Shown: piece after piece, positions 2,903 to 59,132 of the stretch | Numbering within the stretch: position 1 is the stretch's first letter | How the letters are laid out: each line of letters begins with the position of its first letter | DNA from: Fidelibacterota bacterium | Lineage (GTDB): Bacteria > Fidelibacterota > Marinisomatia > Marinisomatales > Marinisomataceae | NCBI GenBank assembly: GCA_016777965.1 | Contig: JADHQL010000002.1 | Location: 50,642-114,641, forward strand | Direction: 5' to 3' | Length of the DNA stretch: 64,000 nt | Translations under genes and position numbers: made by a program | Notes under the pieces: generated by a model | Database searches by the model: none | What the model saw: only the letters and a program-made list of their open reading frames with translations | What the model was told of the DNA's origin: nothing

Positions 2903-5293
2903 ATGCGTACAAAAATTCTATTTCTAATAATTGTTTCATTTACAATTATAAATTATGCTATTAATGCATTTTTAAAGCCAGTTGAAGTTTCATATTCTGG
3001 TATTAATACTGAGTTATCTTTATCAAATGATGTTGAGGTATTATTTGATGATTATGGCGTTCCAAGCGTTTTTGCTGAAAACGATTCTGATATGTTTAAA
3101 GTTGCTGGTTACATTGGAGCAAGAGACAGGTTATTTCAGATGGCTTTTATGAAATATGCATATAAGGGTCAATTAAGCTTAGTGGTTAATGACACATTAT
3201 TCGCTGAAGATCGCTTTTTAAGAACCTTAGGTTTTGAAAAAACTGCAAAGAAGACATTAGATAAAGTTTCTCCTAACATTATGAAGCATTTGGAAGATAC
3301 ATGTTATGGAATAAATGCGTATGTTCAAAATTTAAGTCCTAATGAATATCCTCTTGAGTTTAAGTTATTACAGATAAAAGAATTACCAGTATTTGAACCG
3401 TTGGATATTATTGCTTTAAGTACAATGATGGCCTGGGAATTGCAAGGTGGATGGGACTCAGAGCTCTTTTTTGGAGCGATTAATGAGCAGCTTGGACCTG
3501 ACTATTTAGCAGAGATATTACCCTCATATAAAGAAGATTATGTGACTATAGTTTCCAATGACGTCCTACTTAAAAGTTATCAGCAATTTGCAAGCGATAC
3601 GAAGAATTTAAGAAACCTATTAAAAACAGATAGAGATGGCTATGGTTCTAATGCATGGGCTGTATCAGGATCTAAAACAGTTTCTGGAAAACCACTATTA
3701 GCAAATGATCCTCACTTGGCCTATAATCAGCCACCATGGTGGTACGAAATACGATTAAAAAGTGACAACTTTAATTTTGGTGGTTATGGTCTGTATGGAT
3801 TTCCTTTACCAGTTATTGGACATAATGAGCATATTGGATGGGGTTTTACTAATGTGATGACTGATGATATGGATTTTTATATCGAATCATTGAATGAAGA
3901 TAAAACAAAATATTATGTTGATGGTGAATGGAGAGATTTATTAATTGAAGAAGAAGAAATCACTTTAAAATCTGGAGATGTAAGAAAAATTACTATTCGT
4001 TCGACTCACAGAGGTCCAATTATTAGCAAGATTCACAGAGATGCTAAAGCTTTAAATAAGGCTATATCATTTCAATGGACAGAATATGATGCTTTTGATG
4101 AGACTACAGCATTGTTTATGCTAGCTCAAGCATCTAATTGGGAGGAATTTTCTGAGGCTTCTAAAATGTTTGGTGCTCCTGGACAGAATTGGACATATGC
4201 TGATAAGGAAGGGAATATTGGTTGGAGACCTAGTTCAAAGGTCCCTATAAGGCTTGATGCTGAAATGCTAATTCCTTTTGATGGCACTACCACAAAGCAT
4301 GATTGGCAGGGCTACATTCCATTTGATGAGATGCCATATTCTTTTAATCCTGATAAAGGATATGTTTCGAACGGAAACAATAAAATTATTGGGGATGAAT
4401 ATCCATACTATATATCAAGATATTGGGCAGATCCAAGTCGTGGAGAGCAGATCGATAGAAGATTAAGAATCGATGCTAAATTTGATGTTGATGATATGAA
4501 ATCTGTGCTCAATGATATTACCTCGCCATTTGGAGAAGAATATGCTCCAATTTTTACTGAAAATTATACGCTAGGTTTTTCAGATGAAGGGGATGAGATT
4601 TATAGCATGTTAAAAGGATGGGATGGCGTTGAATCTATTAATTCAGATGCTACAGTAGCCTTCCATGCAGTATATCTTCAATTAGTTCAAAATCTATTTC
4701 AAGATGAACTGTTTAGCTTTAGTAATGATTCGTTTGACACATTTTATAGCTTGAAATACATCCGTTCACTAGCTATAAGAAAAATATTTGATGGTGAGGC
4801 TACATTATGGGTAGATAATGTGTTAACTGATGAACAAGAAACATTAAATGATATTGTGAATAAGTCTTTTCATGATGCACATGTATTTCTTTCAGAAAAG
4901 TATGGAAATCCCAAAGATTTAACATGGGGTCAAGTACACCAAGTTACTTATCGTCACCGTCTTGATAAAGATCCATTGGTAAAAAGATTAATTAATTTTA
5001 GCGTTGGGCCATATCCTATGGCAGGATCAGGTATGACTCCAAGAGCAGCAAGTTATTCTGTGAGCGAGCCATTCAATGTTCGAGCTGGGTCTTCTATGAG
5101 AAGAGTGATTGATTTTTCAGATTTTGATAATGGATTTAGTATTTTACCAACTGGACAGTCAGGATTATTTAGATCAAAGCACTATGATGATCAAACTGAC
5201 ATGTACAATAATGGAGAATTTAAACCATTCATGTTTAATTATGATGCTCTTAATGAAGTAAAATCTTCTAAAATGACTTTCAAATCGAAATAA
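2903..5293 (+). CDS. penicillin acylase family protein (Ntn hydrolase; possible acyl-homoserine-lactone or other N-acyl amidase)
   Basis: 796 aa with a signal anchor. The internal autoprocessing site ...DGYGSNAWAVSG matches the beta-subunit N-terminal Ser-Asn motif. Overall size is typical of the family. Confidence 0.85.
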   Translation: MRTKILFLIIVSFTIINYAINAFLKPVEVSYSGINTELSLSNDVEVLFDDYGVPSVFAENDSDMFKVAGYIGARDRLFQMAFMKYAYKGQLSLVVNDTLFAEDRFLRTLGFEKTAKKTLDKVSPNIMKHLEDTCYGINAYVQNLSPNEYPLEFKLLQIKELPVFEPLDIIALSTMMAWELQGGWDSELFFGAINEQLGPDYLAEILPSYKEDYVTIVSNDVLLKSYQQFASDTKNLRNLLKTDRDGYGSNAWAVSGSKTVSGKPLLANDPHLAYNQPPWWYEIRLKSDNFNFGGYGLYGFPLPVIGHNEHIGWGFTNVMTDDMDFYIESLNEDKTKYYVDGEWRDLLIEEEEITLKSGDVRKITIRSTHRGPIISKIHRDAKALNKAISFQWTEYDAFDETTALFMLAQASNWEEFSEASKMFGAPGQNWTYADKEGNIGWRPSSKVPIRLDAEMLIPFDGTTTKHDWQGYIPFDEMPYSFNPDKGYVSNGNNKIIGDEYPYYISRYWADPSRGEQIDRRLRIDAKFDVDDMKSVLNDITSPFGEEYAPIFTENYTLGFSDEGDEIYSMLKGWDGVESINSDATVAFHAVYLQLVQNLFQDELFSFSNDSFDTFYSLKYIRSLAIRKIFDGEATLWVDNVLTDEQETLNDIVNKSFHDAHVFLSEKYGNPKDLTWGQVHQVTYRHRLDKDPLVKRLINFSVGPYPMAGSGMTPRAASYSVSEPFNVRAGSSMRRVIDFSDFDNGFSILPTGQSGLFRSKHYDDQTDMYNNGEFKPFMFNYDALNEVKSSKMTFKSK

Positions 5294-5301
5294 AATTTTT
5301 C

Positions 5302-5330
5302 TTGAATCCCTACAAATAGGTGTTTAAACT
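5302..5330 (+). promoter_or_regulatory. candidate sigma70-like promoter (TTGAAT-17 nt-TAAACT)
   Basis: TTGAAT at 5302-5307 and TAAACT at 5325-5330 with a 17-nt spacer. This would place the transcription start near the leader ATG (5337). Pattern match only, and such matches are easy to find in AT-rich DNA. Confidence 0.25.
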
Positions 5331-5336
5331 AATCCA

Positions 5337-5396
5337 ATGAGAAAATTTTATAACTATTATTTTTATTTTATAAGCAGGGGGACTGTAGACGCCTAA
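5337..5396 (+). CDS. 19-codon Phe/Tyr-rich leader peptide MRKFYNYYFYFISRGTVDA (candidate attenuation leader of the aromatic operon)
   Basis: Hand-read: ATG AGA AAA TTT TAT AAC TAT TAT TTT TAT TTT ATA AGC AGG GGG ACT GTA GAC GCC TAA. An in-frame stop lies at 5325-5327 upstream. AGGTG at 5318-5322 is a possible SD. The ORF is too short for the ORF track. Confidence 0.6.
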   Translation: MRKFYNYYFYFISRGTVDA

Positions 5397-5452
5397 CGGT
5401 AAATTTATATCGATTCTACACAAACCCTAGTAAAACCCGCTAGGGTTTTTTG
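5376..5452 (+). promoter_or_regulatory. candidate antiterminator/terminator switch of the leader region
   Basis: Antiterminator pairing: AGGG (5376-5379) plus TGTAGA (5384-5389) with TCTACA (5415-5420) plus CCCT (5425-5428). It shares 5425-5428 with the terminator 5' arm, so the two folds exclude each other. Folded by hand only. Confidence 0.45.
5423..5452 (+). terminator. intrinsic terminator hairpin with U-tract, upstream of chorismate mutase
   Basis: AACCCTAG (5423-5430) pairs with CTAGGGTT (5440-5447) around a 9-nt loop. A T-run extends to 5451. The hairpin lies 17 nt before ATG 5469. Confidence 0.7.
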
Positions 5453-5468
5453 TTATATGGAGGAAATT

Positions 5469-5729
5469 ATGAATGAAAAAATATTAAAAAACAGAGATAG
5501 AATAGATAATGCTGATGAACAAATCTTTGATTTACTGTTGCAAAGGTTGGATGCGGTAACAGCTATTGGTCATATAAAAAAGCTAGAAGGTTTACCAGTT
5601 CTAGATCAAGAAAGAGAAAATGCAATCTATGCCAAAATTGAGGCGCGTTTTTCTGCCGCAGAAGCTAGCTTTTTAAAATCAATTTATCAGTCAATCATAT
5701 CAGAATCAAAAAAAGTAGAGGAGTTATAA
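5469..5729 (+). CDS. chorismate mutase (stand-alone AroQ class)
   Basis: About 86 aa. R..ID..D..I..LL..R......IG..K is the AroQ pattern. ATG 5469 is preceded by GGAGG (5459-5463); an alternative ATG at 5457 is the track start. Confidence 0.85.
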   Translation: MNEKILKNRDRIDNADEQIFDLLLQRLDAVTAIGHIKKLEGLPVLDQERENAIYAKIEARFSAAEASFLKSIYQSIISESKKVEEL

Positions 5730-7069
5730 TGTCAAAGTGGTCCAAAGATTCTTGGAAAAACTTCAAGATTAAACATATTCCACAATACAATGATTTAGAT
5801 CAGCTTGAAAAAGCATTAAAGAAGCTAGAAGGATTTCCACCATTAGTTTTTGCCGGAGAATGTAGAAATTTAAAAGAAGACCTTGCTAAGGCTAGTAAGG
5901 GTGATGCATTCTTAGTTCAGGGTGGAGATTGTGCTGAAAGCTTTAAGGAATTTAATGCAAATAATATTCGAGATACTTTTAGAGTTATTTTACAAATAAG
6001 CGCTGTAATAACTGCAAAACTAAAAGTACCAGTCATAAAGCTTGGAAGAATTGCTGGACAATTTGCCAAGCCAAGATCTTCTGATTTAGAAACAATAGAT
6101 GGAAAAACTTTGAACAGTTATTTTGGAGATTCAATTAATAGTATTGAATTTTCTGAGGAAAAAAGAGAGCCAAATCCTGCAAGACTATTGAGAGCATATT
6201 CTCAGTCTGCTTCAACTTTAAATTTACTGAGATCCTTTGCGCAGGGTGGTTTTGCAAATTTACGTAAAGTGAACTCGTGGAATATGGGATTTGTTAAGGC
6301 GAGTAAAGAGGGTAAAAAGTATGAGGAAATAGCTGCCAAAATTAATGAATACTTAGATTTTATGGATGCTGTGGGAGTTAATACATCAACTGTCATTGAC
6401 TTAAATACTGTAGAGTTTTTTACAAGTCATGAAGGATTACATCTTCCATACGAAGCAGCATTAACACGCGTAGATTCACTTACAAACGAGGTTTATTGTA
6501 CTTCAGCACACTTTGTGTGGATTGGAGATAGAACTCGCTTTGTTGATAGTGCTCATGTAGAATTTTGCAGAGGTATAAGCAATCCGATTGGTATCAAGTG
6601 TGGACCAAGCCTTGATCCTGAAGAATTGATTAAGATTATTGATATTATCAATCCTCAAAATGAAGCTGGTAAAATTTCATTAATATTAAGGTATGGTAAA
6701 GATATTATTGACGATTACTTGCCTGGATTAGTTGAAGTAATTATGAAAAATAATAAAAATGTATTGTGGATCTCTGACCCAATGCATGGAAATACAGTCA
6801 AATCTTCCTCAGGTTTAAAAACTCGAGATTTTAATGCTTTGCTAATTGAAACATCAAAAGCAATTAAAATTCTTAAAGATAAAGGTTGTCATTTAGGTGG
6901 GATTCATTTAGAGATGACAGGACAAAATGTTACTGAATGTACTGGAGGAATTTATAAAGTAAGCGACAAAGATTTAAGTTCAAGATATCATACGCATTGT
7001 GACCCAAGATTGAATGCTAATCAAGCACTAGAGTTGTCATTTAATATTGCAAAGGAATTGCAAAGATAA
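5729..7069 (+). CDS. 3-deoxy-7-phosphoheptulonate (DAHP) synthase, class II
   Basis: 446 aa. The N-terminus W.....K..PQY.D...L......L...PPLVFAGE...L...LA....G.AFLVQGGDCAESF is typical of class II (plant/actinobacterial type). TAATG overlap with the upstream gene. Confidence 0.9.
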   Translation: MSKWSKDSWKNFKIKHIPQYNDLDQLEKALKKLEGFPPLVFAGECRNLKEDLAKASKGDAFLVQGGDCAESFKEFNANNIRDTFRVILQISAVITAKLKVPVIKLGRIAGQFAKPRSSDLETIDGKTLNSYFGDSINSIEFSEEKREPNPARLLRAYSQSASTLNLLRSFAQGGFANLRKVNSWNMGFVKASKEGKKYEEIAAKINEYLDFMDAVGVNTSTVIDLNTVEFFTSHEGLHLPYEAALTRVDSLTNEVYCTSAHFVWIGDRTRFVDSAHVEFCRGISNPIGIKCGPSLDPEELIKIIDIINPQNEAGKISLILRYGKDIIDDYLPGLVEVIMKNNKNVLWISDPMHGNTVKSSSGLKTRDFNALLIETSKAIKILKDKGCHLGGIHLEMTGQNVTECTGGIYKVSDKDLSSRYHTHCDPRLNANQALELSFNIAKELQR

Positions 7070-8320
7070 ATGCAAGTTCAAGGAACATTACAACTTCCAG
7101 GAGATAAATCTATTTCTCATAGAGCAATAATGCTTTCAGCGATAGCTGATGGAGTTAGTTATGTTAGAAATCTAAATGATGGAGCTGACCTTCAATCCAC
7201 AATAAATATTTTGAGAGATTGCGGAGCTTCAATTAAACAAAATGAGAATGAGATTATAATTTACGGAAAAGAACTTTATTCACCGTCTAAAGAACTTGAT
7301 TGCGGTAATTCAGGTACAACAACTAGACTAATTGCAGGCCTATTATCATCCCAAAAATTATCATTTACCTTGATAGGAGATAAATCATTGTCAAGAAGAC
7401 CTATGAAGCGAATAATCACACCTTTGGTACAAATGGGTTGTAAAATTTCCTCGAATGATGGATTATTGCCTTTGTCAATAGATGCTTCTGATGGTGTTAG
7501 TGCTATACATTATAATATGAAAGTTGCAAGTGCCCAGGTTAAATCAAGTATACTTTTTTCCGCATTAGGCGGAAATAATGTATCAAGTGTTAATGAGATT
7601 ATTCCGACAAGAAATCATTCAGAAATTATGTTAAAGAATATGGGAGCATCAATTGAAAGTGAAGGAAGTAAAATTATAGTTTATCCAATCAAATCCAAGT
7701 TAAAGTCGATTGATATTTCTGTACCCTCTGATCCATCCTCAGCAGCATTTTTTGTTGCTTTGGCAGTTATTAATAACAATTCAAATTTAAAGCTGACTAA
7801 TGTATTACTTAACGATTCCAGAATTGGATTTATTGAAGTTTTAAATAAAATGAATTGTTTAATAACAAAATCAAATGAGTCAGTTCATAATGGTGAAAAG
7901 GTAGGAGATTTAACTATTAGCGCATCTAATCTTAAAGCAATAGAAATTGAATCAAAAACTATACCATCAATCATAGATGAAGTGCCAATATTAGCTGTTG
8001 TAGCAGCTTTTGCAAAAGGCATAACGGTTTTTAAAAGTGTAGAAGAGTTAAAATATAAAGAATGTGATAGGTTAAGCGCAATTATACATAATCTAGAAGC
8101 ATTTGGAATCAACGCATATGAAAAAAATAATGACTTATTTGTCGAGGGAGGTAAGGTAGAAAGAATGTCTAAAATAACTACCTTTGATGATCATAGGATT
8201 GCTATGGCATTCACAATTTTAAGCCTTACTTCTTTTGAAAAATATGAGCTTGATAATATGCAATGCGTTGATATTTCATTACCAAATTTCTTCAATTATC
8301 TTAGCGAGGTAACCAAATGA
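7070..8320 (+). CDS. aroA: 3-phosphoshikimate 1-carboxyvinyltransferase (EPSP synthase)
   Basis: LPGDKSISHRAIMLSA, GNSGTTTRL, and a C-terminal DHRIAMAF. Confidence 0.95.
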   Translation: MQVQGTLQLPGDKSISHRAIMLSAIADGVSYVRNLNDGADLQSTINILRDCGASIKQNENEIIIYGKELYSPSKELDCGNSGTTTRLIAGLLSSQKLSFTLIGDKSLSRRPMKRIITPLVQMGCKISSNDGLLPLSIDASDGVSAIHYNMKVASAQVKSSILFSALGGNNVSSVNEIIPTRNHSEIMLKNMGASIESEGSKIIVYPIKSKLKSIDISVPSDPSSAAFFVALAVINNNSNLKLTNVLLNDSRIGFIEVLNKMNCLITKSNESVHNGEKVGDLTISASNLKAIEIESKTIPSIIDEVPILAVVAAFAKGITVFKSVEELKYKECDRLSAIIHNLEAFGINAYEKNNDLFVEGGKVERMSKITTFDDHRIAMAFTILSLTSFEKYELDNMQCVDISLPNFFNYLSEVTK

Positions 8321-9135
8321 AATTTGCAGTGATAGGAAACCCCATCGATAAAAGTTTAAGCCCTCAGCTTCATGAAATTCTTTATGAGAAATTGAATATT
8401 TTGAACTGTACTTTTGAAAAAATTCATATAGAAAATGATAAGCTTGATGATTTTTTTAATAATGATTTTGGTTTATTTAATGGTATTAATGTTACTATTC
8501 CGTTCAAAAGTAGAGTAGTAAAGTTTTTGGATGATATTGACGATGAGGCAAAAATATTAGATAATGTGAACTGTATATCAAAATCAAATAATATGATTTG
8601 TGGATTTAATACTGATAAGTATGGATTTGATATGCTGTTAAATAAAAATGTTATAGTTATAAAGGGAAGTAGCTGTATTGTTCTTGGCGCAGGATCGTCT
8701 GCAAAAACTGTAGTTAAATGCTTAATTGATAAGGGAGTTGATAGGATTATTATAAAAAATAGATCTATCGATAATGCTCACAAGCTTCAAAATTTTGCTC
8801 ATACCCTTGGTTTCAATAATATAGATTTATTTAATTCTAATCATGCAATTTTTGATATTGCAATTAATACAACTCCAATAGGAATGTATAAGAAAGACTG
8901 TGACAATTTTTTTGATATTCCTATCCAAGATCATGCAGTATTAATCGATCTAATTTATACCTCTAAAGAGACTTCATTTTTAAAAAAATTTAATAAATGT
9001 TCCAAAAAGATAAATGGGCTTGATATGTTTATTTTTCAAGCTTTGAAGTCTATTGAAATTTGGAGAGAAACTAACTATAATTTGGATTCACAAATTGAGT
9101 CTGTAAGAAAACAATTGGAGAACTTAAAATGTTAA
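8317..9135 (+). CDS. aroE: shikimate dehydrogenase
   Basis: VIGNPI.KSLSP..H at the N-terminus, NVTIPFK, and the Rossmann motif VLGAGSSAK. 4-nt overlap with aroA. Confidence 0.9.
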   Translation: MKFAVIGNPIDKSLSPQLHEILYEKLNILNCTFEKIHIENDKLDDFFNNDFGLFNGINVTIPFKSRVVKFLDDIDDEAKILDNVNCISKSNNMICGFNTDKYGFDMLLNKNVIVIKGSSCIVLGAGSSAKTVVKCLIDKGVDRIIIKNRSIDNAHKLQNFAHTLGFNNIDLFNSNHAIFDIAINTTPIGMYKKDCDNFFDIPIQDHAVLIDLIYTSKETSFLKKFNKCSKKINGLDMFIFQALKSIEIWRETNYNLDSQIESVRKQLENLKC

Positions 9136-10289
9136 AAAAAATATCATACATGACTGCCGGAGAATCACATGGAAAAGGTTTAATAGGTATTATCGAAGGT
9201 ATACCTGCTGGTCTTCAGCTTTCAGAAGAATACATTGCAGTTGATCTGTTAAGAAGGATGCAAGGTCATGGTAGAGGAAAAAGAATGCAAATTGAAAAAG
9301 ATTTTGCAGAAATTTTTTCAGGAGTACGCCATGAGTACACACTTGGATCACCTATTTCTCTTATCATTAAAAATTTAGATTGGGTTAACTGGGAAGATAG
9401 AATGGCAGTAGGTAAACCTAAAAAAGAACATAAAAAGGTAACAATGCCTCGACCTGGACATGCAGATTTAGCAGGCATGATGAAATATGATTTTGATGAT
9501 ATACGAAATGTTTTGGAACGATCTTCTGCAAGAGAAACTGCAATGAGAGTTGCAATTGGTGCTATTTGTAGAAAACTATTAGATGAGGTTGGAATAACCA
9601 TTGGTAGTAGAGTATATCAAATTCATGATGTTGTTGATACTAAAGAAGTTGACCATTCTTTAACGATGTCTCAATTAAATGATTTAGCCGATAAATCTTC
9701 CGTAAGATGTTTAAATAAAAATGCGGAAGAAAGAATGATTAACGTTATTGATGAAGCAAAAAGTAATGGAGATTCGGTTGGAGGTTCTTTTGAGGTTATT
9801 GCCAAGGGAATGCCTTATGGTTTAGGAAGTTATATCAATGCTGATGGAAAGCTTCAAGCTAGAATTTCCCAAGCAATGATGTCTGTGAATGCTTTTAAAG
9901 GCGTGGAGGTTGGAGCTGGTTTTGCTTCATCAGCAGCATTTGGAAGTGAACTTCATGATGAAATATTATTTGAAAATGACAAAATCACTCGTTCAAGAAA
10001 TAATGCTGGGGGTATTGAAGGTGGAATGAGTAATGCTCAACCAATACATGTAAAGGTGAGTATGAAACCTATTTCAACGCTCATAAAGCCCTTAAGATCG
10101 ATAGATTTGAATACTATGGAGCCCAAGCTTGCGCATAAAGAAAGGACAGATTCTTGTGCAGTTCCTGCGGCATCAATCATTGGGGAAAGTATGTTGGCCA
10201 TTGTCCTTGCGGATGCATTGCTTGAAAAGTTCGGAGGAGATAGTATTAAGCAATTAAAAAAACACATTAAAAGCAGTGGAAAATACTAA
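9129..10289 (+). CDS. aroC: chorismate synthase
   Basis: TAGESHGKGL, RPGHADL and ERSSARETA motifs. Confidence 0.95.
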   Translation: MLKKISYMTAGESHGKGLIGIIEGIPAGLQLSEEYIAVDLLRRMQGHGRGKRMQIEKDFAEIFSGVRHEYTLGSPISLIIKNLDWVNWEDRMAVGKPKKEHKKVTMPRPGHADLAGMMKYDFDDIRNVLERSSARETAMRVAIGAICRKLLDEVGITIGSRVYQIHDVVDTKEVDHSLTMSQLNDLADKSSVRCLNKNAEERMINVIDEAKSNGDSVGGSFEVIAKGMPYGLGSYINADGKLQARISQAMMSVNAFKGVEVGAGFASSAAFGSELHDEILFENDKITRSRNNAGGIEGGMSNAQPIHVKVSMKPISTLIKPLRSIDLNTMEPKLAHKERTDSCAVPAASIIGESMLAIVLADALLEKFGGDSIKQLKKHIKSSGKY

Positions 10290-10788
10290 TCAAATATATT
10301 TAATTGGAATGATGGGTTCTGGAAAATCTTCCACTGCAAAAGCCCTCTCTTTGAGTTTGGGATGGAATTTTATTGATATTGATAATGAACTAACCAAGTC
10401 ATTCGATATGTCTATAAATGAGTTATTTTTAAGGGGAGAAGAAAATTTTAGAAAGTTAGAATTTGCTGAATTGCAAAAACATATTTTAAAAGAAAATACT
10501 ATTATAGCTGTTGGTGCAGGAGCAGTATCCTGTAAAGATAGTTACGAATTGTTAAGCTCAAAACACTGCATTTATTTAAAAACATCTAAAAATATCTTAT
10601 TAGATAGGCTTAAAGATGACTATTCTAGGCCGTTATTAAATGTTCAAAATAAAGATGAGGTATTTGAAGAAATTATGCTTAAAAGAGAGCAAAAGTACGA
10701 AGCATTATGCAAAAGTAAGGTAATTACTGATAATCAGACTATTCAGGACAACTGCTACCAAATTATGGAGATAATTAATGTCCAATAA
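10276..10788 (+). CDS. aroK: shikimate kinase
   Basis: Walker A motif IGMMGSGKSS. 170 aa. GTG start with a 14-nt overlap with aroC. Confidence 0.9.
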   Translation: MENTNQIYLIGMMGSGKSSTAKALSLSLGWNFIDIDNELTKSFDMSINELFLRGEENFRKLEFAELQKHILKENTIIAVGAGAVSCKDSYELLSSKHCIYLKTSKNILLDRLKDDYSRPLLNVQNKDEVFEEIMLKREQKYEALCKSKVITDNQTIQDNCYQIMEIINVQ

Positions 10789-11845
10789 GATTAAAGTTGA
10801 TTTAGGAAAAAATAGTTACAATATCAGTTTAATTGAAGGTTTCAAAAATTCAGTTGTGAAGTTTGCATCTTCTACAAAATCACAATGTATGTTAATTACT
10901 CAAAAAGAGATTCTAAATCTTTACAAAGACGAAATAAACGAGCTTTCTAATTTACCTAATGTAAATATTTTTTTGATTGATCAGGGTGAAAATGCGAAAT
11001 CATTTGAGTCTATTTCTTTAATTGTAAATGAGATGGCAAAAAAACATTTTGATAGATCATCATTAGTTTTTGCAGTAGGCGGAGGAGTAGTTGGAGATGT
11101 TGCGGGCTTTGCATCATCAATTTTTATGAGAGGAATTAAATATATTCAATATCCAACCACGTTACTTGCAATGGTCGATTCTGCTATAGGTGGAAAGACA
11201 GGAATAAATTTAAAGGATGGTAAAAATTTAGTTGGAAGAATATATCAACCTATAGCTGTAGAAATTGATACAAATTTTTTATCAACTTTGCCAGATAGAG
11301 AACTGCAAGCTGCTCTTGCAGAGGTTATAAAATATGGCTTTATTTATGATAGAGAATTTTTTGATTATTTAGTTGTTAATTCAATAAAAATTGAAAATAA
11401 AGATATAGATGTTTTACAAAAAATAATTATCCAATGTTGTGAAATAAAAAGCGGCATTGTTAGTGAAGATGAAAATGAGAATGAATTAAGAATGATTTTA
11501 AATTTTGGTCACACAGTTGGGCATGCACTTGAATCATTTACTAATTACAAAAATTTATTACATGGAGAAGCAATTTTTTATGGAATGAAGTGCGCATTAT
11601 ATCTTTCCAATAAATTTGGAAATTTATCTAATGATGAATATGATATATCCACTCAATTATTATCTAAATTTAAATTACCAAAACTTGATATTGATAACAG
11701 AGAGACTTTTATTAATTTTGTCAAGAATGACAAAAAATTTAGAGAGAAAAAAATTAGATTTATTTTATTAGATGAAATTGGTAAATCAAGAATGAGTGAA
11801 GATATCACATTTGATCAAATCAAAGAAAGTTTGAGCGTGTTATGA
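10778..11845 (+). CDS. aroB: 3-dehydroquinate synthase
   Basis: GGGVVGDVAGFAAS-type glycine-rich motif, PTTLLAMVDSAIGGKTGIN, and metal ligands in the GHT.GHA context. Confidence 0.95.
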   Translation: MSNKIKVDLGKNSYNISLIEGFKNSVVKFASSTKSQCMLITQKEILNLYKDEINELSNLPNVNIFLIDQGENAKSFESISLIVNEMAKKHFDRSSLVFAVGGGVVGDVAGFASSIFMRGIKYIQYPTTLLAMVDSAIGGKTGINLKDGKNLVGRIYQPIAVEIDTNFLSTLPDRELQAALAEVIKYGFIYDREFFDYLVVNSIKIENKDIDVLQKIIIQCCEIKSGIVSEDENENELRMILNFGHTVGHALESFTNYKNLLHGEAIFYGMKCALYLSNKFGNLSNDEYDISTQLLSKFKLPKLDIDNRETFINFVKNDKKFREKKIRFILLDEIGKSRMSEDITFDQIKESLSVL

Positions 11846-12273
11846 AATTAATTATCGTGAATGGGCCAAACCTGAACTTGCTTGGCGAAAGAGAGCCTGA
11901 AATCTATGGTAGTGAGACCCTGAATCAAATCAATACATGGATTCAGAATCATGAATTGTGCCACAATTTAGAACTTGAATTCTTTCAATCGAATTTGGAA
12001 GGTAAAATAATTGACTTTTTACATTCAAAAAGAGGAAAAGTAGACTATTGTATATTAAACGCTGGCGCACTGACTCATTATTCATATGCATTAAGAGATG
12101 CCATAGTTGGAACTCAAATTCCTACGGTTGAAGTACATTTGTCAAATATTCATAAACGAGAAAATTTTAGAAAAACTTCCGTTATTAAAAATGTTTGTAT
12201 TGGACAGTTTTTTGGTGAAGGAAAACAAAGTTATATAAACGGTATAAAGCATATTTTGGAGATAAAAAAATGA
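11842..12273 (+). CDS. aroQ: 3-dehydroquinate dehydratase, type II
   Basis: The N-terminus I.NGPNLNLLGEREPEIYG and the later LNAGALTHYS..LRDA are hallmark type II motifs. Confidence 0.95.
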   Translation: MKLIIVNGPNLNLLGEREPEIYGSETLNQINTWIQNHELCHNLELEFFQSNLEGKIIDFLHSKRGKVDYCILNAGALTHYSYALRDAIVGTQIPTVEVHLSNIHKRENFRKTSVIKNVCIGQFFGEGKQSYINGIKHILEIKK

Positions 12274-12836
12274 AAGTAGGTATTCAAGGAATTGAAGGAA
12301 GTTTTAGCGAAGAAGCTGCAAAATCATATTGTGAAAAATTTGGAATTAAAGATTTTGAATTAAAATATCTTGTTAGTTCAATGAACGTGCTTGATAGTTT
12401 ATCAAGTAATTCAATTGATACAGGAATATTTGCTATGGAAAATGCTCAAGGAGGAGTGGTAATTGAAAGCGTAGAAGCTTTAGCAAAAAATCAGTGTCAA
12501 ATCATTGACATGTTTTATGTAGAAATCAGCCAAAATTTATTAGCAATAGAAGGAGTTTCAGTCGGAGATATTGAAGAAATTCATTCACATGAACAAGCAT
12601 TAAAACAATGTAAAGACTATTTGGCTGAAAAATTCTGGTCAAAAAAGCTAGTTGAGAAGGATGATACTGCTAAGGCAGCTAAAGATTTAGCTGAGGGAAG
12701 ATTGTCGAAACAAGTAGCAGTTATTGCAAGTAAATTTTCCGCAAAGAAATATGGACTTAACATTCTTGAAAATGATATACATGATCTAAAGAGAAATTTA
12801 ACTTTATTCTTGGCTGTAAAGAGGTTAGACTCATGA
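12270..12836 (+). CDS. pheA: prephenate dehydratase, catalytic (PDT) domain only, no ACT domain
   Basis: 188 aa. N-terminus GIQGIEGSFSEEAA, then ENAQGGVV and H.QAL.QC. The protein ends right after the NLTLF segment, which corresponds to the usual N.TRF. The next gene overlaps by 4 nt, so there is no room for a regulatory domain. Confidence 0.8.
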   Translation: MKVGIQGIEGSFSEEAAKSYCEKFGIKDFELKYLVSSMNVLDSLSSNSIDTGIFAMENAQGGVVIESVEALAKNQCQIIDMFYVEISQNLLAIEGVSVGDIEEIHSHEQALKQCKDYLAEKFWSKKLVEKDDTAKAAKDLAEGRLSKQVAVIASKFSAKKYGLNILENDIHDLKRNLTLFLAVKRLDS

Positions 12837-13546
12837 ACAAAGTTAGCATCATAGGGTTTGGTAGATTTGGAGCAATGCTCCATGCTTTACTGTCTAAAGG
12901 TTTTCAAGTTGATGTTTTTGATAAAAACCCTATCGATAACTCAGAAATCAATGAAGTTTCTCTTGAAGATGCTCTTAAAAATGAGACTATTTTCATTGCT
13001 GTTCCTATTAGAGATTTTAAAGAGCTAATAGTCGATATCTCAGATAAAATTGAAAGCGGAAAGACTTTAATAGATGTTTGTTCGGTAAAGGTATTTCCCA
13101 AAAAAGTGATGAAAGATAACTTGCCTGCTCAAACAGACATAATAGCAACACATCCATTATTTGGTCCTGATTCCTTAAAAGATAGTGGTTCAGTTATGAC
13201 AATGGAATCTGTGCGAAATAATTTTGAAAGATACGATTTTTGGAAAAACTATTTTGAAAGTCAAAATATTACCATTGAAGAAATTTCTGCTGAAGAGCAC
13301 GATATGATGGCTGCAAGATCACAAGGATTAACCCACTTTGTTGGAAGAGTAATTGATGATTTTGGAACAAATCAAACTAGAATTGATACAGAAGGCTATA
13401 AAGCATTGCATAAGCTTGTCAGTCAAACATGTAACGATACCTGGGAATTATTTGAAGATATTCAAAATTTTAATCCATATACCGAAAAAATGATTTCGGA
13501 ATTAAATGGAAGTTTCAAAAAAATTAGCGAAATTATAGATAAATAA
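12833..13546 (+). CDS. tyrA: prephenate (or arogenate) dehydrogenase, short form
   Basis: Rossmann N-terminus VSIIGFGRFG, then DVCSVK and HPLFGP motifs. 237 aa with no C-terminal ACT domain. Confidence 0.8.
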   Translation: MNKVSIIGFGRFGAMLHALLSKGFQVDVFDKNPIDNSEINEVSLEDALKNETIFIAVPIRDFKELIVDISDKIESGKTLIDVCSVKVFPKKVMKDNLPAQTDIIATHPLFGPDSLKDSGSVMTMESVRNNFERYDFWKNYFESQNITIEEISAEEHDMMAARSQGLTHFVGRVIDDFGTNQTRIDTEGYKALHKLVSQTCNDTWELFEDIQNFNPYTEKMISELNGSFKKISEIIDK

Positions 13547-13556
13547 GGGGAACATT

Positions 13557-13919
13557 ATGGATAATATTTTAAATAAAATTAGTATCAGCTTAATTATTTT
13601 AGGCATAGCATTTTATGCTATTGCTATGACTTTTACTGCGCTCATTCCTTCAATTTTAGGGTTGTTGATGCAAATTGTTTTATTTTTAGGAAGAACTTTT
13701 CCAAAATTTCACAAACATTTTGCACATGTAAATGTATTGATATTAATTCTTGGTATTGGAGCTACTTTTGGAACTGTTTCTGATTTAGCTGGTTATCTTT
13801 TAAGTGGCAACGAGCTAGAAAGGCCTTTAGCAACCGTTGAACAGTTTACAACTTTTGTTTTATGTCTTGTTGGATTTATAATGTCAGTAAAGTCATTTAT
13901 AAATGCTAGAAAGAGTTAA
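13557..13919 (+). CDS. small integral membrane protein, unknown function
   Basis: 120 aa with about 4 hydrophobic helices. No recognisable motif. Confidence 0.5.
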   Translation: MDNILNKISISLIILGIAFYAIAMTFTALIPSILGLLMQIVLFLGRTFPKFHKHFAHVNVLILILGIGATFGTVSDLAGYLLSGNELERPLATVEQFTTFVLCLVGFIMSVKSFINARKS

Positions 13920-15424: not shown

Positions 15425-15446
15425 CTCCATTTTTATTGATTGTTTG

Positions 15447-15479
15447 AAAAAGGGCTACAAAATTTTAGCCCTTTTTTTT
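15447..15479 (+). terminator. rho-independent terminator
   Basis: AAAAAGGGCTA (15447-15457) pairs with TAGCCCTTTTT (15466-15476) around an 8-nt loop. A T-run extends to 15479. Confidence 0.8.
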
Positions 15480-16186: not shown

Positions 16187-16259
16187 GGGGCTGTAGCTCA
16201 GTTGGGAGAGCGCGTGGATGGCATTCACGAGGTCGTCGGTTCGATCCCGTCCAGCTCCA
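16187..16259 (+). tRNA. tRNA-Ala (anticodon GGC)
   Basis: Hand-folded cloverleaf with acceptor GGGGCTG/CAGCTCC, including the G3:U70 Ala identity pair. The anticodon loop is ATGGCAT and the T-loop TTCGATC. There is one U-U mismatch in the T stem. CCA is not encoded. Confidence 0.85.
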
Positions 16260-24485: not shown

Positions 24486-24558
24486 GCGAGTGTAGCTCAG
24501 CTGGTAGAGCACAACCTTGCCAAGGTTGGGGTCGCGCGTTCGAATCGCGTCACTCGCT
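24486..24558 (+). tRNA. tRNA-Gly (anticodon GCC)
   Basis: Hand-folded with acceptor GCGAGTG/CACTCGC, anticodon loop TTGCCAA, T-loop TTCGAAT and discriminator U. Confidence 0.9.
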
Positions 24559-25046: not shown

Positions 25047-25186
25047 AAATTATACTTAATTTAATGTTAATATAAACAATATAATAATATAACACACATT
25101 AATTATACACACTTTGTTAATAACTTTCTAAATTCATAAATATGTTAACTTACAGTAATCTAATGTTTTGTTAGAAACTTTTTTTT

Positions 25187-25642
25187 ATGAAAGAAAAAAT
25201 TGAAATAATAAGCAATAATCGTAAAGCATTTCATAGCTATACCATAATTGATAAATACGAATCTGGAATGATTCTTTTAGGTAGCGAAGTCAAAAGTTTG
25301 AGGGAAAAAAAACTAAACCTTAAAGATAGTTTTGTAACACTAAAAAAGAATCGCTTCTACCTAGTAAATGCTCATATCAGTCCTTATTCACATACTGGAA
25401 TAAAAGGTCATGAACCGACAAGGGATCGAGAGCTGCTTCTTCATAAAAAAGAAATAATCAAGTTAAAGAATGTTGTTGCTCAGAAAGGTCTTACTATTGT
25501 ACCTTTAAAAGCATACTTTAAGAGAGGAATTGCAAAAATAGAATTTGCTACCGCTCGAGGAAAAAAAATGTATCAGAAAAAAGAATCTTTAAAAATTAAA
25601 GATCTCGATAGAGAGGCAAAAAGAGAAATGAGAGAGAGATAA
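25187..25642 (+). CDS. smpB: SsrA-binding protein
   Basis: I..N(R)KA.H.Y.I....E.G..L.G.EVKSLR and LLLHK.EI motifs. 151 aa. Confidence 0.95.
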   Translation: MKEKIEIISNNRKAFHSYTIIDKYESGMILLGSEVKSLREKKLNLKDSFVTLKKNRFYLVNAHISPYSHTGIKGHEPTRDRELLLHKKEIIKLKNVVAQKGLTIVPLKAYFKRGIAKIEFATARGKKMYQKKESLKIKDLDREAKREMRER

Positions 25643-31732: not shown

Positions 31733-31736
31733 TGCT

Positions 31737-32255
31737 ATGGACAGTAAAAATAAAAAAATCTCAAAAATATTAGATAAATATAAATCATCTTTTTCAAGTA
31801 CCGATCTATCGAGTTTGGAATCCTTGCTATCAAATGATTCAGTAGTTAATGAAAATTATTTATTATATACAGACGGTGCCTGTGAATTTGATAATGACTA
31901 TAAACCTATTAATGCTGGTATTGGAGGCTTAATAAAGCTTAACAATAAAACGTTATTTTCTTTCTCTGAAAATGTTGGTGTTAAAACAAATAATGAGGCT
32001 GAATATTTAGCTTTGATTAAAGGTTTAGATCTATGTGTCAAAAACAATATTTCAAATGTATTAATTTTTGCCGATAGCGAGTTAGTTGTAAAGCAAATTA
32101 ATGGAGATTATAAGGTCAAGAATGAAAGAATGGCTGCTTTGCATAAAAAAACCCATGATTTACTTAAAATGTTATCTTCTTGGGAAATCAATCATGTCCT
32201 TAGAGATAAAAATACTGAAGCAGATGATTTAAGCAAGCAAGGTTTGAGTAAATAA
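31737..32255 (+). CDS. rnhA: ribonuclease HI-like protein (RNase H fold, about 40-aa N-terminal extension)
   Basis: The DEDD-type residues sit in contexts LYTDGAC, TNNEAEYLALIKGL, FADSELVVKQ and NTEADDLS. Confidence 0.75.
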   Translation: MDSKNKKISKILDKYKSSFSSTDLSSLESLLSNDSVVNENYLLYTDGACEFDNDYKPINAGIGGLIKLNNKTLFSFSENVGVKTNNEAEYLALIKGLDLCVKNNISNVLIFADSELVVKQINGDYKVKNERMAALHKKTHDLLKMLSSWEINHVLRDKNTEADDLSKQGLSK

Positions 32256-59045: not shown

Positions 59046-59132
59046 GGAGAGGTGGCTGAGTGGCTGAAAGCGGCACCCTGCTAAGGTGTTATACTCGTAA
59101 GGGTATCGAGGGTTCGAATCCCTCTCTCTCCG
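59046..59132 (+). tRNA. tRNA-Ser (anticodon GCU)
   Basis: Hand-folded with acceptor GGAGAGG/TCTCTCC, anticodon loop CTGCTAA, a long variable arm and T-loop TTCGAAT. 87 nt. Confidence 0.88.

Follow-up and report, generated by a model that had tools for sequence, protein, structure and literature searches.

A probable leader-peptide attenuator with a mixed Phe/Tyr codon run in front of the shikimate-to-Phe/Tyr operon of a Marinimicrobia (SAR406) genome

Introduction

What controls the ten-gene aromatic amino-acid operon of a Fidelibacterota bacterium, in front of which lie a short open reading frame (ORF) rich in Phe and Tyr codons and a hairpin? The question was raised by a stretch of 64,000 nucleotides (nt) of GenBank assembly GCA_016777965.1 (contig JADHQL010000002.1, positions 50,642 to 114,641 of the forward strand), referred to hereafter as the window, for which an initial annotation made from the letters alone had proposed a ribosome-mediated attenuator at 5302-5468. 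The computational analysis presented here indicates that the element is very probably a ribosome-mediated (leader-peptide) transcription attenuator of the shikimate-to-Phe/Tyr operon. Four features of a classical attenuator of this kind are found: an ORF bearing codons for the pathway products, a terminator ahead of the first structural gene, an antiterminator exclusive with that terminator, and a geometry that would allow masking by a ribosome. The sequences themselves show the conserved ORF with its aromatic codons, the terminator, the pairing that competes with it and the spacing of these parts, and the positions first given for the mini-ORF, its 7/8 Phe/Tyr run, the hairpin, the T-run, the Shine-Dalgarno (SD) motif and the ATG of chorismate mutase (CM) all agree with the sequence.

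Results

Leader reading frame and aromatic codon run

5337-5396, + strand: leader ORF of 19 codons plus TAA, MRKFYNYYFYFISRGTVDA, by direct reading and kept in 37/37 distinct relatives
5346-5369, + strand: regulatory codon run F Y N Y Y F Y F (3 Phe TTT, 4 Tyr TAT), by sequence and by exchanges in relatives

The leader ORF reads ATG AGA AAA TTT TAT AAC TAT TAT TTT TAT TTT ATA AGC AGG GGG ACT GTA GAC GCC TAA, with the stop codon at 5394-5396, and seven of the eight consecutive codons at 5346-5369 are TTT or TAT. The genome has a guanine-plus-cytosine (GC) content of 31%, which makes such codons common, and the initial annotation had itself warned that strings of this kind arise easily in AT-rich spacers. 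Three comparisons were used as a measure of chance. On both strands of the window, 720 ATG-initiated ORFs of 10-60 codons are present, and the leader ORF is the single one to reach the 7/8 level, two others reaching 6/8 (25160-25234 and 31735-31788, both on the minus strand). Dinucleotide-preserving shuffles of the gap produced an ORF with a 7/8 run in 4 of 20,000 trials (P ~2e-4). As an AT-rich control, the 400 nt upstream of DAHP synthase were taken from 61 SAR11 loci (29% GC), where the 7/8 level was reached in 0/61 and the 6/8 level in 2/61, the latter from poly-T tracts with neither terminator nor conservation. The Phe/Tyr run exceeds chance expectation.

The two minus-strand ORFs with 6/8 runs, one straddling a gene start and the other antisense to a gene, are probably chance occurrences, and no terminator was seen after either.

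Conservation in close relatives

The closest matches to the DAHP synthase of the window (80-81% identity) belong to Candidatus Marinimicrobia/Neomarinimicrobiota (SAR406) genomes, and NCBI taxonomy places Fidelibacterota, equivalent to the Marinimicrobia phylum, in the Fibrobacterota-Chlorobiota-Bacteroidota (FCB) group. The earlier description of the host as "FCB-like" was thus right as to the group, and the genome is of Marinimicrobia rather than Bacteroidetes type. In all four close genomes (4/4) a leader ORF of 19 codons (18 in the clade of locus L002) is followed by the terminator and then by CM. Relatives were retrieved by protein, or by a DNA pattern in metagenomes consisting of the terminator 3' arm, the U-tract and the first CM codons, with the ORF, the antiterminator and the terminator 5' arm left free; the pattern scan yielded 40 additional loci, and three look-ups of divergent CMs supplied further leaders. 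The resulting comparison set comprises 37 distinct leader regions of 175 nt.

The ATG and the TAA are shared by 37/37 of these regions, each with 5-7 Phe/Tyr codons, and the encoded peptides comprise 23 variants of five types:

Window type: MRKFYNYYFYFISRGTVDA
Type 2: MSKFYNYYFYFRSRGTVEA
Type 3: MNNFYNFYFYFERRGTVGA
Type 4: MKNFFNYYYFRSRGTVEA
Type 5: MKSNNNFYYYFNGRGYVGT

Within the codon run the changes observed are exchanges of Phe and Tyr (TTT<->TAT) and the synonymous TAT->TAC and TTT->TTC, while losses of an aromatic codon are rare and single (one Cys, and Leu in two sequences). The sole difference in ORF length is an in-frame 3-nt indel. The N-terminal residues are free to vary, and the C-terminal motif RGTV(D/E)A, the codons of which form the antiterminator 5' arm described below, is well kept in the close clade. 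Loci L001 and L003 have a different upstream gene and the same leader and terminator, the conserved block beginning directly after the stop codon of that gene; the leader element therefore belongs to the operon and not to the gene upstream of it.

An additional in-frame ATG lies ~18 nt 5' of the shared leader ATG in the L002 sub-clade (MFKLYE-MKNFF... in L002, L004, L088 and related loci). It was rejected as a shared start, since it lies across the -10 box and in the other sub-clades is either missing or in another frame, and it is probably unused.

Terminator, antiterminator and switching energetics

5376-5389, + strand: antiterminator 5' arm, (A)GGGG...UGUAGA, ORF codons 14-18, by RNAalifold on an alignment ending in the terminator loop, pair counts and energies
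5415-5428, + strand: antiterminator 3' arm, UCUACA...CCCU, the last 4-7 nt of which are also the terminator 5' arm
5422-5451, + strand: intrinsic terminator with a 10-bp stem, a 7-nt loop and a U6 tail, by terminator scan, compensatory changes and an energy of -13.0 kcal/mol
5459-5471, + strand: SD motif GGAGG (5459-5463) and ATG (5469) of CM, the first structural gene, by sequence and by the match of its protein to Pfam CM_2

The intrinsic terminator that had been proposed close to CM was found by the terminator scan with 10 pairs and a 7-nt loop. Its stem is formed by AAACCCTAG(T) at 5422-5431 and (G)CTAGGGTTT at 5439-5448, the T-run extends to 5451, and 17 nt separate the U-tract from the CM ATG. 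The pairing is kept in 99.2% of alignment cells, double changes occur at two pairs (U-A<->C-G and C-G<->U-A), and the covariation score exceeds that of all 500 shuffles and of all slid controls.

When the alignment was ended at the terminator loop, RNAalifold returned unprompted the pairing of GGGG 5377-5380 with CCCU 5425-5428 and of UGUAG 5384-5388 with CUACA 5416-5420. The TGTAGA/TCTACA and AGGG/CCCT pairing previously found by hand is real, with the G-run shifted by one register, and of its two parts GGGG/CCCU alone excludes the terminator in this clade. In the alignment 93% of antiterminator cells are paired and the arms are nearly invariant. The one compensatory event is that of L103, where G->A in the 5' arm is accompanied by C->U in the 3' arm and the new U can still wobble-pair in the terminator. 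CUACA is invariant within otherwise variable non-coding flanks, and in the L001 type the antiterminator helix is nearly continuous over 12 bp.

The two structures are competitive in energy. With the RNA free up to the terminator loop and a ribosome placed on the Phe/Tyr codons, energies of -13.5 (window) to -18 kcal/mol were obtained, as compared with -13 to -16.5 kcal/mol for the terminator alone; with the antiterminator 5' arm hidden, to imitate a ribosome that has reached the stop codon, the downstream RNA folds as the terminator only. In equilibrium folds of the full leader the antiterminated state is dominant in the window (P ~0.88) and in L001, and a mixture of both is obtained for L084, L103 and L081.

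Several further pairings were considered and set aside. A minimum-free-energy fold of 5300-5470 pairs 5317-5326 with 5386-5395 around the ORF; this pairing is not conserved in the L002 type, and its 5' half precedes the predicted transcription start. AU-rich region-1 helices of single sequences have no conserved register, and within the antiterminator loop single folds contain a small hairpin, GAUA..UAUC or CCUA..UAGG, that differs between clades. In the antiterminated state a smaller hairpin, AAAACCC-GCUA-GGGUUUU at 5432-5449, forms and consumes four U's of the U-tract; it was rejected as an essential part, its loop-derived arm being kept in the window sub-clade and not in L002-type sequences. 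A block TA.....TATAT at 5400-5410, within the antiterminator loop, is invariant in 37/37 relatives and no consistent helix accounts for it; it may act as a pause element, or as a decoy to which UGUAG could pair (CUAUA vs CUACA).

Geometry and the proposed switch

The antiterminator 5' arm ends 5 nt ahead of the stop codon at 5394. On its other side, the arm is 7 nt away from the end of the last Phe codon (5369). A terminating ribosome protects ~15 nt on each side of its P-site codon. A ribosome at the stop codon would therefore cover the 5' arm, as the arm ends within this footprint, and one stalled on any of codons 4-10 would leave it free, as the last Phe codon ends before the arm begins.

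In the scheme that this geometry suggests, transcription would run from a sigma-70-like promoter (-35 at 5302-5307, -10 at 5325-5330), starting at or next to AUG 5337, and the 19-codon ORF would be translated, probably from a leaderless mRNA. With ample Phe-tRNA and Tyr-tRNA, the ribosome would reach TAA 5394 and cover ~5376-5406, hiding the antiterminator 5' arm, so that the terminator at 5422-5448 with its U-tract could form and transcription would stop at ~5451. When either tRNA is scarce, the ribosome would stall within 5346-5369 and 5376-5389 would be free to pair with 5415-5428; this pairing would take up the CCCU of the terminator 5' arm, and RNA polymerase would read into the operon. 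We infer the stalling of the ribosome and the response to amino-acid supply from this arrangement.

Candidate promoter and translation start

5302-5307, + strand: candidate -35 box TTGAAT; its CTTG block is kept immediately past the stop codon of either of two unlike upstream genes
5325-5330, + strand: candidate -10 box TAAACT, with 6 nt between its end and the leader ATG

In the relatives the putative -10 box reads TAAACT, TAATAT or TAACTT, and 6-8 nt always lie between its end and the leader ATG. The configuration TTGnnn-17/18-TAnnnT is present in 11/13 representative leaders, and in every close-clade type and 5/7 distant leaders, as against a background of 34/2,540 window ATGs (1.3%) even with looser spacing permitted. 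No SD-like motif precedes any of the leaders (0/37), a check that is uninformative alone as only 25/51 window genes have such a motif, and CM has GGAGG. As the -10 box ends 6-8 nt before the ATG and an SD motif is lacking, we infer that this promoter is used and that the leader ORF is leaderless: transcription probably starts at or next to the leader AUG, and the leader is probably translated as a leaderless mRNA.

Bacteroidetes promoters are of the type -33 TTTG / -7 TAnnTTTG. The promoter-like signal at 5302-5330, with equivalents in L001-L125, is of sigma-70 type and thus unlike the Bacteroidetes one, despite the placement of the phylum in the FCB group.

Leaders of distant Marinimicrobia

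The distant clades are the strongest comparative evidence for an attenuator. In Marinimicrobia with a DAHP synthase ~60% identical to that of the window, the gene order is CM-[leader]-PDT-PDH-DAHPS (PDT, prephenate dehydratase; PDH, prephenate dehydrogenase; DAHPS, DAHP synthase), and an aromatic-rich mini-ORF followed by a terminator was found in 6/6 loci whose CM-PDT gap lay within the fetched flank. A covariance model, R1, was built from the close clade alone, with shortened calibration and hence rough E-values. It finds exactly one copy in the window (128.7 bits) and matches seven distant leaders over the full length of the model at 20.8-37.5 bits, with E<0.01 in 4/7. Positions, leader peptides and model matches are as follows:

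L010, 1585-1697: MATKYYYQTYFNDGLRVSP; 37.5 bits, E=3e-5
L008, 1517-1651: MNYLNEQKFTRWYFYFNNGGVL; 36.9 bits, E=4e-5
L012, 75-190, the seventh, surfaced via the covariance model: MKIFFYYFKYAIEGLKNCP; 29.8 bits, E=0.002
L019, 1552-1683: MNYIITKNYYSSYFFFTRERVL; 27.3 bits, E=0.007
L024, 2096-2226: MIKLTAEQFTIFYWYYGSGGLE; 25.2 bits, E=0.02, not significant alone
L011, 2147-2252: MCMFNYYYWNYRKSGG; 22.7 bits, E=0.07, not significant alone
L023, 1574-1680: MLNTFYFYYFAKTRGNT; 20.8 bits, E=0.2, not significant alone

The cores of these peptides (..WYFYFNNGGVL, MATKYYYQTYF.., ..NYYSSYFFF.., MLNTFYFYYF.., MCMFNYYYWNY.., ..FTIFYWYY.., MKIFFYYFKY..) share the aromatic run, and the leaders share the architecture, with no further peptide motif; in 3/7 a Trp codon is added to the Phe/Tyr run (WYFYF, YYYWNY, FYWYY). 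In the six distant leaders that were folded, the final ORF codons pair with the terminator 5' arm at -15 to -26 kcal/mol through sequences unlike those of the window, for example GGGUUGGAG/CUCCAACCC in L024 and CGGGCGGAUGAUG/CAUCAUUUGUCCCG in L011; an equivalent pairing, GGGUUGAAAAA/UUUUUUCAACCC, was identified in L012 by eye only. The stop codon lies within the antiterminator 5' arm or <=8 nt past it in 7/7, and the last aromatic codon ends 6-11 nt ahead of the arm.

The leader family is plausibly homologous across the phylum, as judged from these matches. A broader view would be that a single homologous family of leaderless attenuators governs the aromatic pathway across Marinimicrobia (SAR406), with a 5'-terminal AUG delivered by a sigma-70-like promoter, no region-1 pause hairpin, read-through as the default (the opposite of trp-type superattenuation), and one peptide integrating two, in some clades three, aromatic amino acids over the common pathway and both branches; this we put forward tentatively, as a possibility somewhat short of an even chance.

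In the distant clades the leader and terminator are located between CM and PDT, and CM therefore lies outside the attenuated unit there.

Operon and neighboring genes

5469-13546, + strand: controlled operon of 10 genes, whose ORFs abut or overlap, with identities by Pfam

In order, the genes encode CM (CM_2), class II DAHP synthase, EPSP synthase, shikimate dehydrogenase, chorismate synthase, shikimate kinase, DHQ synthase, type II dehydroquinase (DHQase II), PDT and PDH. As had been read from the sequence alone, the operon combines the common pathway with the Phe and Tyr branches, and no trp gene is present among the ten at 5469-13546. The CM is a stand-alone protein of 86 amino acids with matches in a narrow clade only (68-94% identity). 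Upstream, the gene at 2903-5293 encodes a penicillin amidase (Pfam).

An ORF of 120 amino acids at 13557-13919, without a Pfam match, begins 10 nt past PDH, and the first terminator-like site 3' of the operon is at 15446-15477; in view of both, the transcription unit may extend past the ten aromatic genes. The DAHP synthase of the window (5729-7069), compared with loci L007-L080, is 58-61% identical to those of many Pelagibacteraceae (SAR11) and 60-62% identical to those of other Marinimicrobia clades, a likeness that could stem from lateral transfer between these two lineages, both abundant in the sea, or simply from strong conservation. Three tRNA genes, at 16187-16259, 24486-24558 and 59046-59132, are the sole Rfam matches at gathering score in the window.

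Discussion

Support for the attenuator and points that weigh against it

The logic originally put forward, by which a ribosome reaching the stop codon would permit termination and one stalled on the Phe/Tyr codons would prevent it, is supported by the comparative data: ORF, start, Phe/Tyr run and stop are kept in 37/37 relatives, the energies are competitive, and the architecture recurs in distant clades. The alignment of upstream regions that the initial annotation had suggested as a check revealed conserved start, run and stop positions with compensatory changes in both stems, and the suggested folding gave two alternative structures of competitive energy. The computable outcomes that it had named as adverse, namely loss of the mini-ORF or its Phe/Tyr codons in relatives and an uncompetitive antiterminator, did not appear.

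Several observations weigh against reading the element as a leader-peptide attenuator. The support is computational, consisting of sequence comparison and predicted folds, and the leader ORF has no SD motif, so that its translation hinges on the predicted leaderless start. The metagenome loci L087-L126 share an exact 16-mer by construction, and the invariance of GGGTTTTTTGTTATAT in them is not independent evidence. Exclusion of the terminator in the window clade involves the 4 bp of GGGG/CCCU only, across a 3x4 internal loop, and UGUAG/CUACA is able to coexist with the terminator. The antiterminator scarcely varies in the window clade, where one compensatory event is seen, and its support there is mainly conservation together with the distant clades. 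The equilibrium fold of the L002 type favors the terminator (P ~1.0), from which it follows that antitermination must be kinetic, as in classical attenuators. Finally, for the nascent leader RNAalifold gave no conserved hairpin of the pause or anti-antiterminator (region 1:2) type; L002-type sequences have a 9-bp CUAUUAUUA/UAAUAAUAG helix that is AU-rich and not conserved in register. If a region-1 hairpin is indeed lacking, read-through would be the default of a leader that is not translated, in contrast to the trp leader of E. coli.

Alternative explanations

The switch might be real and its sensor a protein that binds the RNA, an uncharged tRNA in the manner of a T-box, or an aptamer for a small molecule, with the ORF incidental. 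Alternation of terminator and antiterminator does not by itself identify a sensor, and with no SD motif the translation of the leader is itself a prediction. Nevertheless, no T-box, riboswitch or other Rfam family matches at gathering threshold, and 5' of the switch the conservation is that of a reading frame and aromatic codons only, in which third-base and Phe-Tyr changes are tolerated; this pattern is therefore one of coding constraint and not of aptamer constraint. The distant leaders, moreover, have only the aromatic run and the architecture in common. A sensor other than the ribosome is accordingly judged very unlikely.

It is likewise highly improbable that the mini-ORF encodes a functional small peptide, either trans-acting or a membrane micropeptide, in addition to codon sensing or in its place. 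Leader peptides that act in trans are known, such as peTrpL in Sinorhizobium (PMC7298713), and the C-terminal motif is well conserved in the close clade. The conserved C-terminal codons, however, coincide exactly with the antiterminator 5' arm, so that their conservation is explained by RNA pairing, while the N-termini vary freely and the distant clades have no common peptide motif beyond the aromatic run.

That the hairpin is simply the terminator of the penicillin-amidase gene and the Phe/Tyr mini-ORF a chance product of the AT-rich spacer is scarcely credible: the terminator scan did find no other terminator-like site between the end of the amidase gene and 5422, and low GC content with two further 6/8 ORFs in the window lends chance some room, but leader and terminator persist behind a different gene in L001 and L003 and behind CM in the distant clades, any operon promoter must lie upstream of the terminator because 17 nt alone separate the U-tract from the CM start, and the conserved frame with its in-frame indel, the shuffles and the SAR11 controls all speak against chance.

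Significance

Marinimicrobia (SAR406) are a phylum abundant in the oceans worldwide, of which to our knowledge no member has been cultured. A leader-peptide attenuator at this locus would add to the phylum a well-defined cis-regulatory RNA family that is absent from Rfam, and would indicate that SAR406 cells synthesize Phe and Tyr themselves and adjust the entire pathway to the charging of tRNA. It would also provide indirect evidence on promoter type (sigma-70-like -35/-10) and on leaderless translation in a lineage of the FCB group, and the short terminated leader transcript could serve in metatranscriptomes as an in-situ marker of aromatic amino-acid sufficiency. The understanding of the attenuation mechanism itself is unchanged.

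Comparison with known systems

The leader is ~115 nt long, and its conserved 5' half is the reading frame. In the comparison with Rfam 15, which the initial annotation had also suggested, no family reached gathering score at the leader within the 64-kb window or in 7 related loci, and this includes the leader families Phe_leader (RF01859), Leu_leader (RF00512), Trp/His/Thr, Bacteroid-trp and leu-phe. The best sub-threshold match is that of Leu_leader (RF00512), which spans 5336-5452, from the ATG to the U-tract, and is not significant (15.9 bits against a threshold of 50, E=2). In the 801-nt region around the leader no T-box or metabolite riboswitch matched at E<=10.

The proposed mechanism is the classical pheL/trpL/hisL design. 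Like pheL-pheA and pheM-pheST of E. coli, the window has a short ORF with codons for the product and a terminator before the first structural gene, and, again as in these, the antiterminator 5' arm would be masked by a ribosome at the stop codon. There is no sequence or covariance-model similarity to the E. coli Phe_leader (RF01859). The run of the window mixes Phe and Tyr codons whereas pheL has Phe only, and the leader precedes a 10-gene operon of the common pathway and both branches whereas the E. coli leader precedes pheA alone. In further contrast to pheL, it has no SD motif and is probably leaderless, and no conserved 1:2 hairpin was found in it.

A nearer parallel in codon content is aroR of Corynebacterium glutamicum, a Phe-Tyr-Phe leader that attenuates the aroF operon (Neshat et al. 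2014, as relayed in PMC11802643) and that is reported to respond to limitation of Phe and not of Tyr. It resembles the window in being a mixed Phe/Tyr leader attenuating a DAHP-synthase operon, and it differs in belonging to Actinobacteria and in having three regulatory codons against seven, the comparison being one of description and not of sequence. The claim that a mixed Phe+Tyr leader over such an operon had not been described in this kind of genome was accordingly too strong, in view of aroR (PMC11802643) and of the attenuation inferred in flavobacteria (PMC9723704).

For the probable leaderless start, precedents are the leaderless leader-peptide attenuators of Deinococcus deserti (PMC4007540) and the polycysteine leaderless small-ORF attenuators of mycobacteria (bioRxiv 10.1101/834739). 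The leader ORF in both lies at or next to the transcription start and lacks an SD motif, as in the window, where the start is deduced from the -10 position. The Deinococcus and mycobacterial cases have mapped transcription starts, sense other amino acids and belong to other phyla.

Within the FCB group, the Bacteroid-trp motif in Rfam is an example of leader attenuation. In Flavobacterium psychrophilum, "strong clues" to leader-peptide attenuation of amino-acid operons have been reported (PMC9723704). Both examples share with the window the superphylum, the general mechanism and the control of amino-acid biosynthesis operons, and they differ in the amino acids and the operon concerned, the promoter of the window being sigma-70-like and not of the Bacteroidetes TAnnTTTG type. 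Bacteroid-trp has no match at E<=10 in the 801-nt region or at gathering score in the window. The literature searched, which did not cover a 2010 survey that may include the FCB group, contained nothing specific on aromatic attenuators in Marinimicrobia or Bacteroidetes, and no description of gene regulation in Marinimicrobia was found in it.

Overall, the most unusual aspects of this leader are the seven-codon mixed Phe/Tyr run over a ten-gene operon, a start that is probably leaderless and the apparent lack of region 1, and each of them has precedents. The element represents a new lineage for a known kind of regulator and not a new kind.

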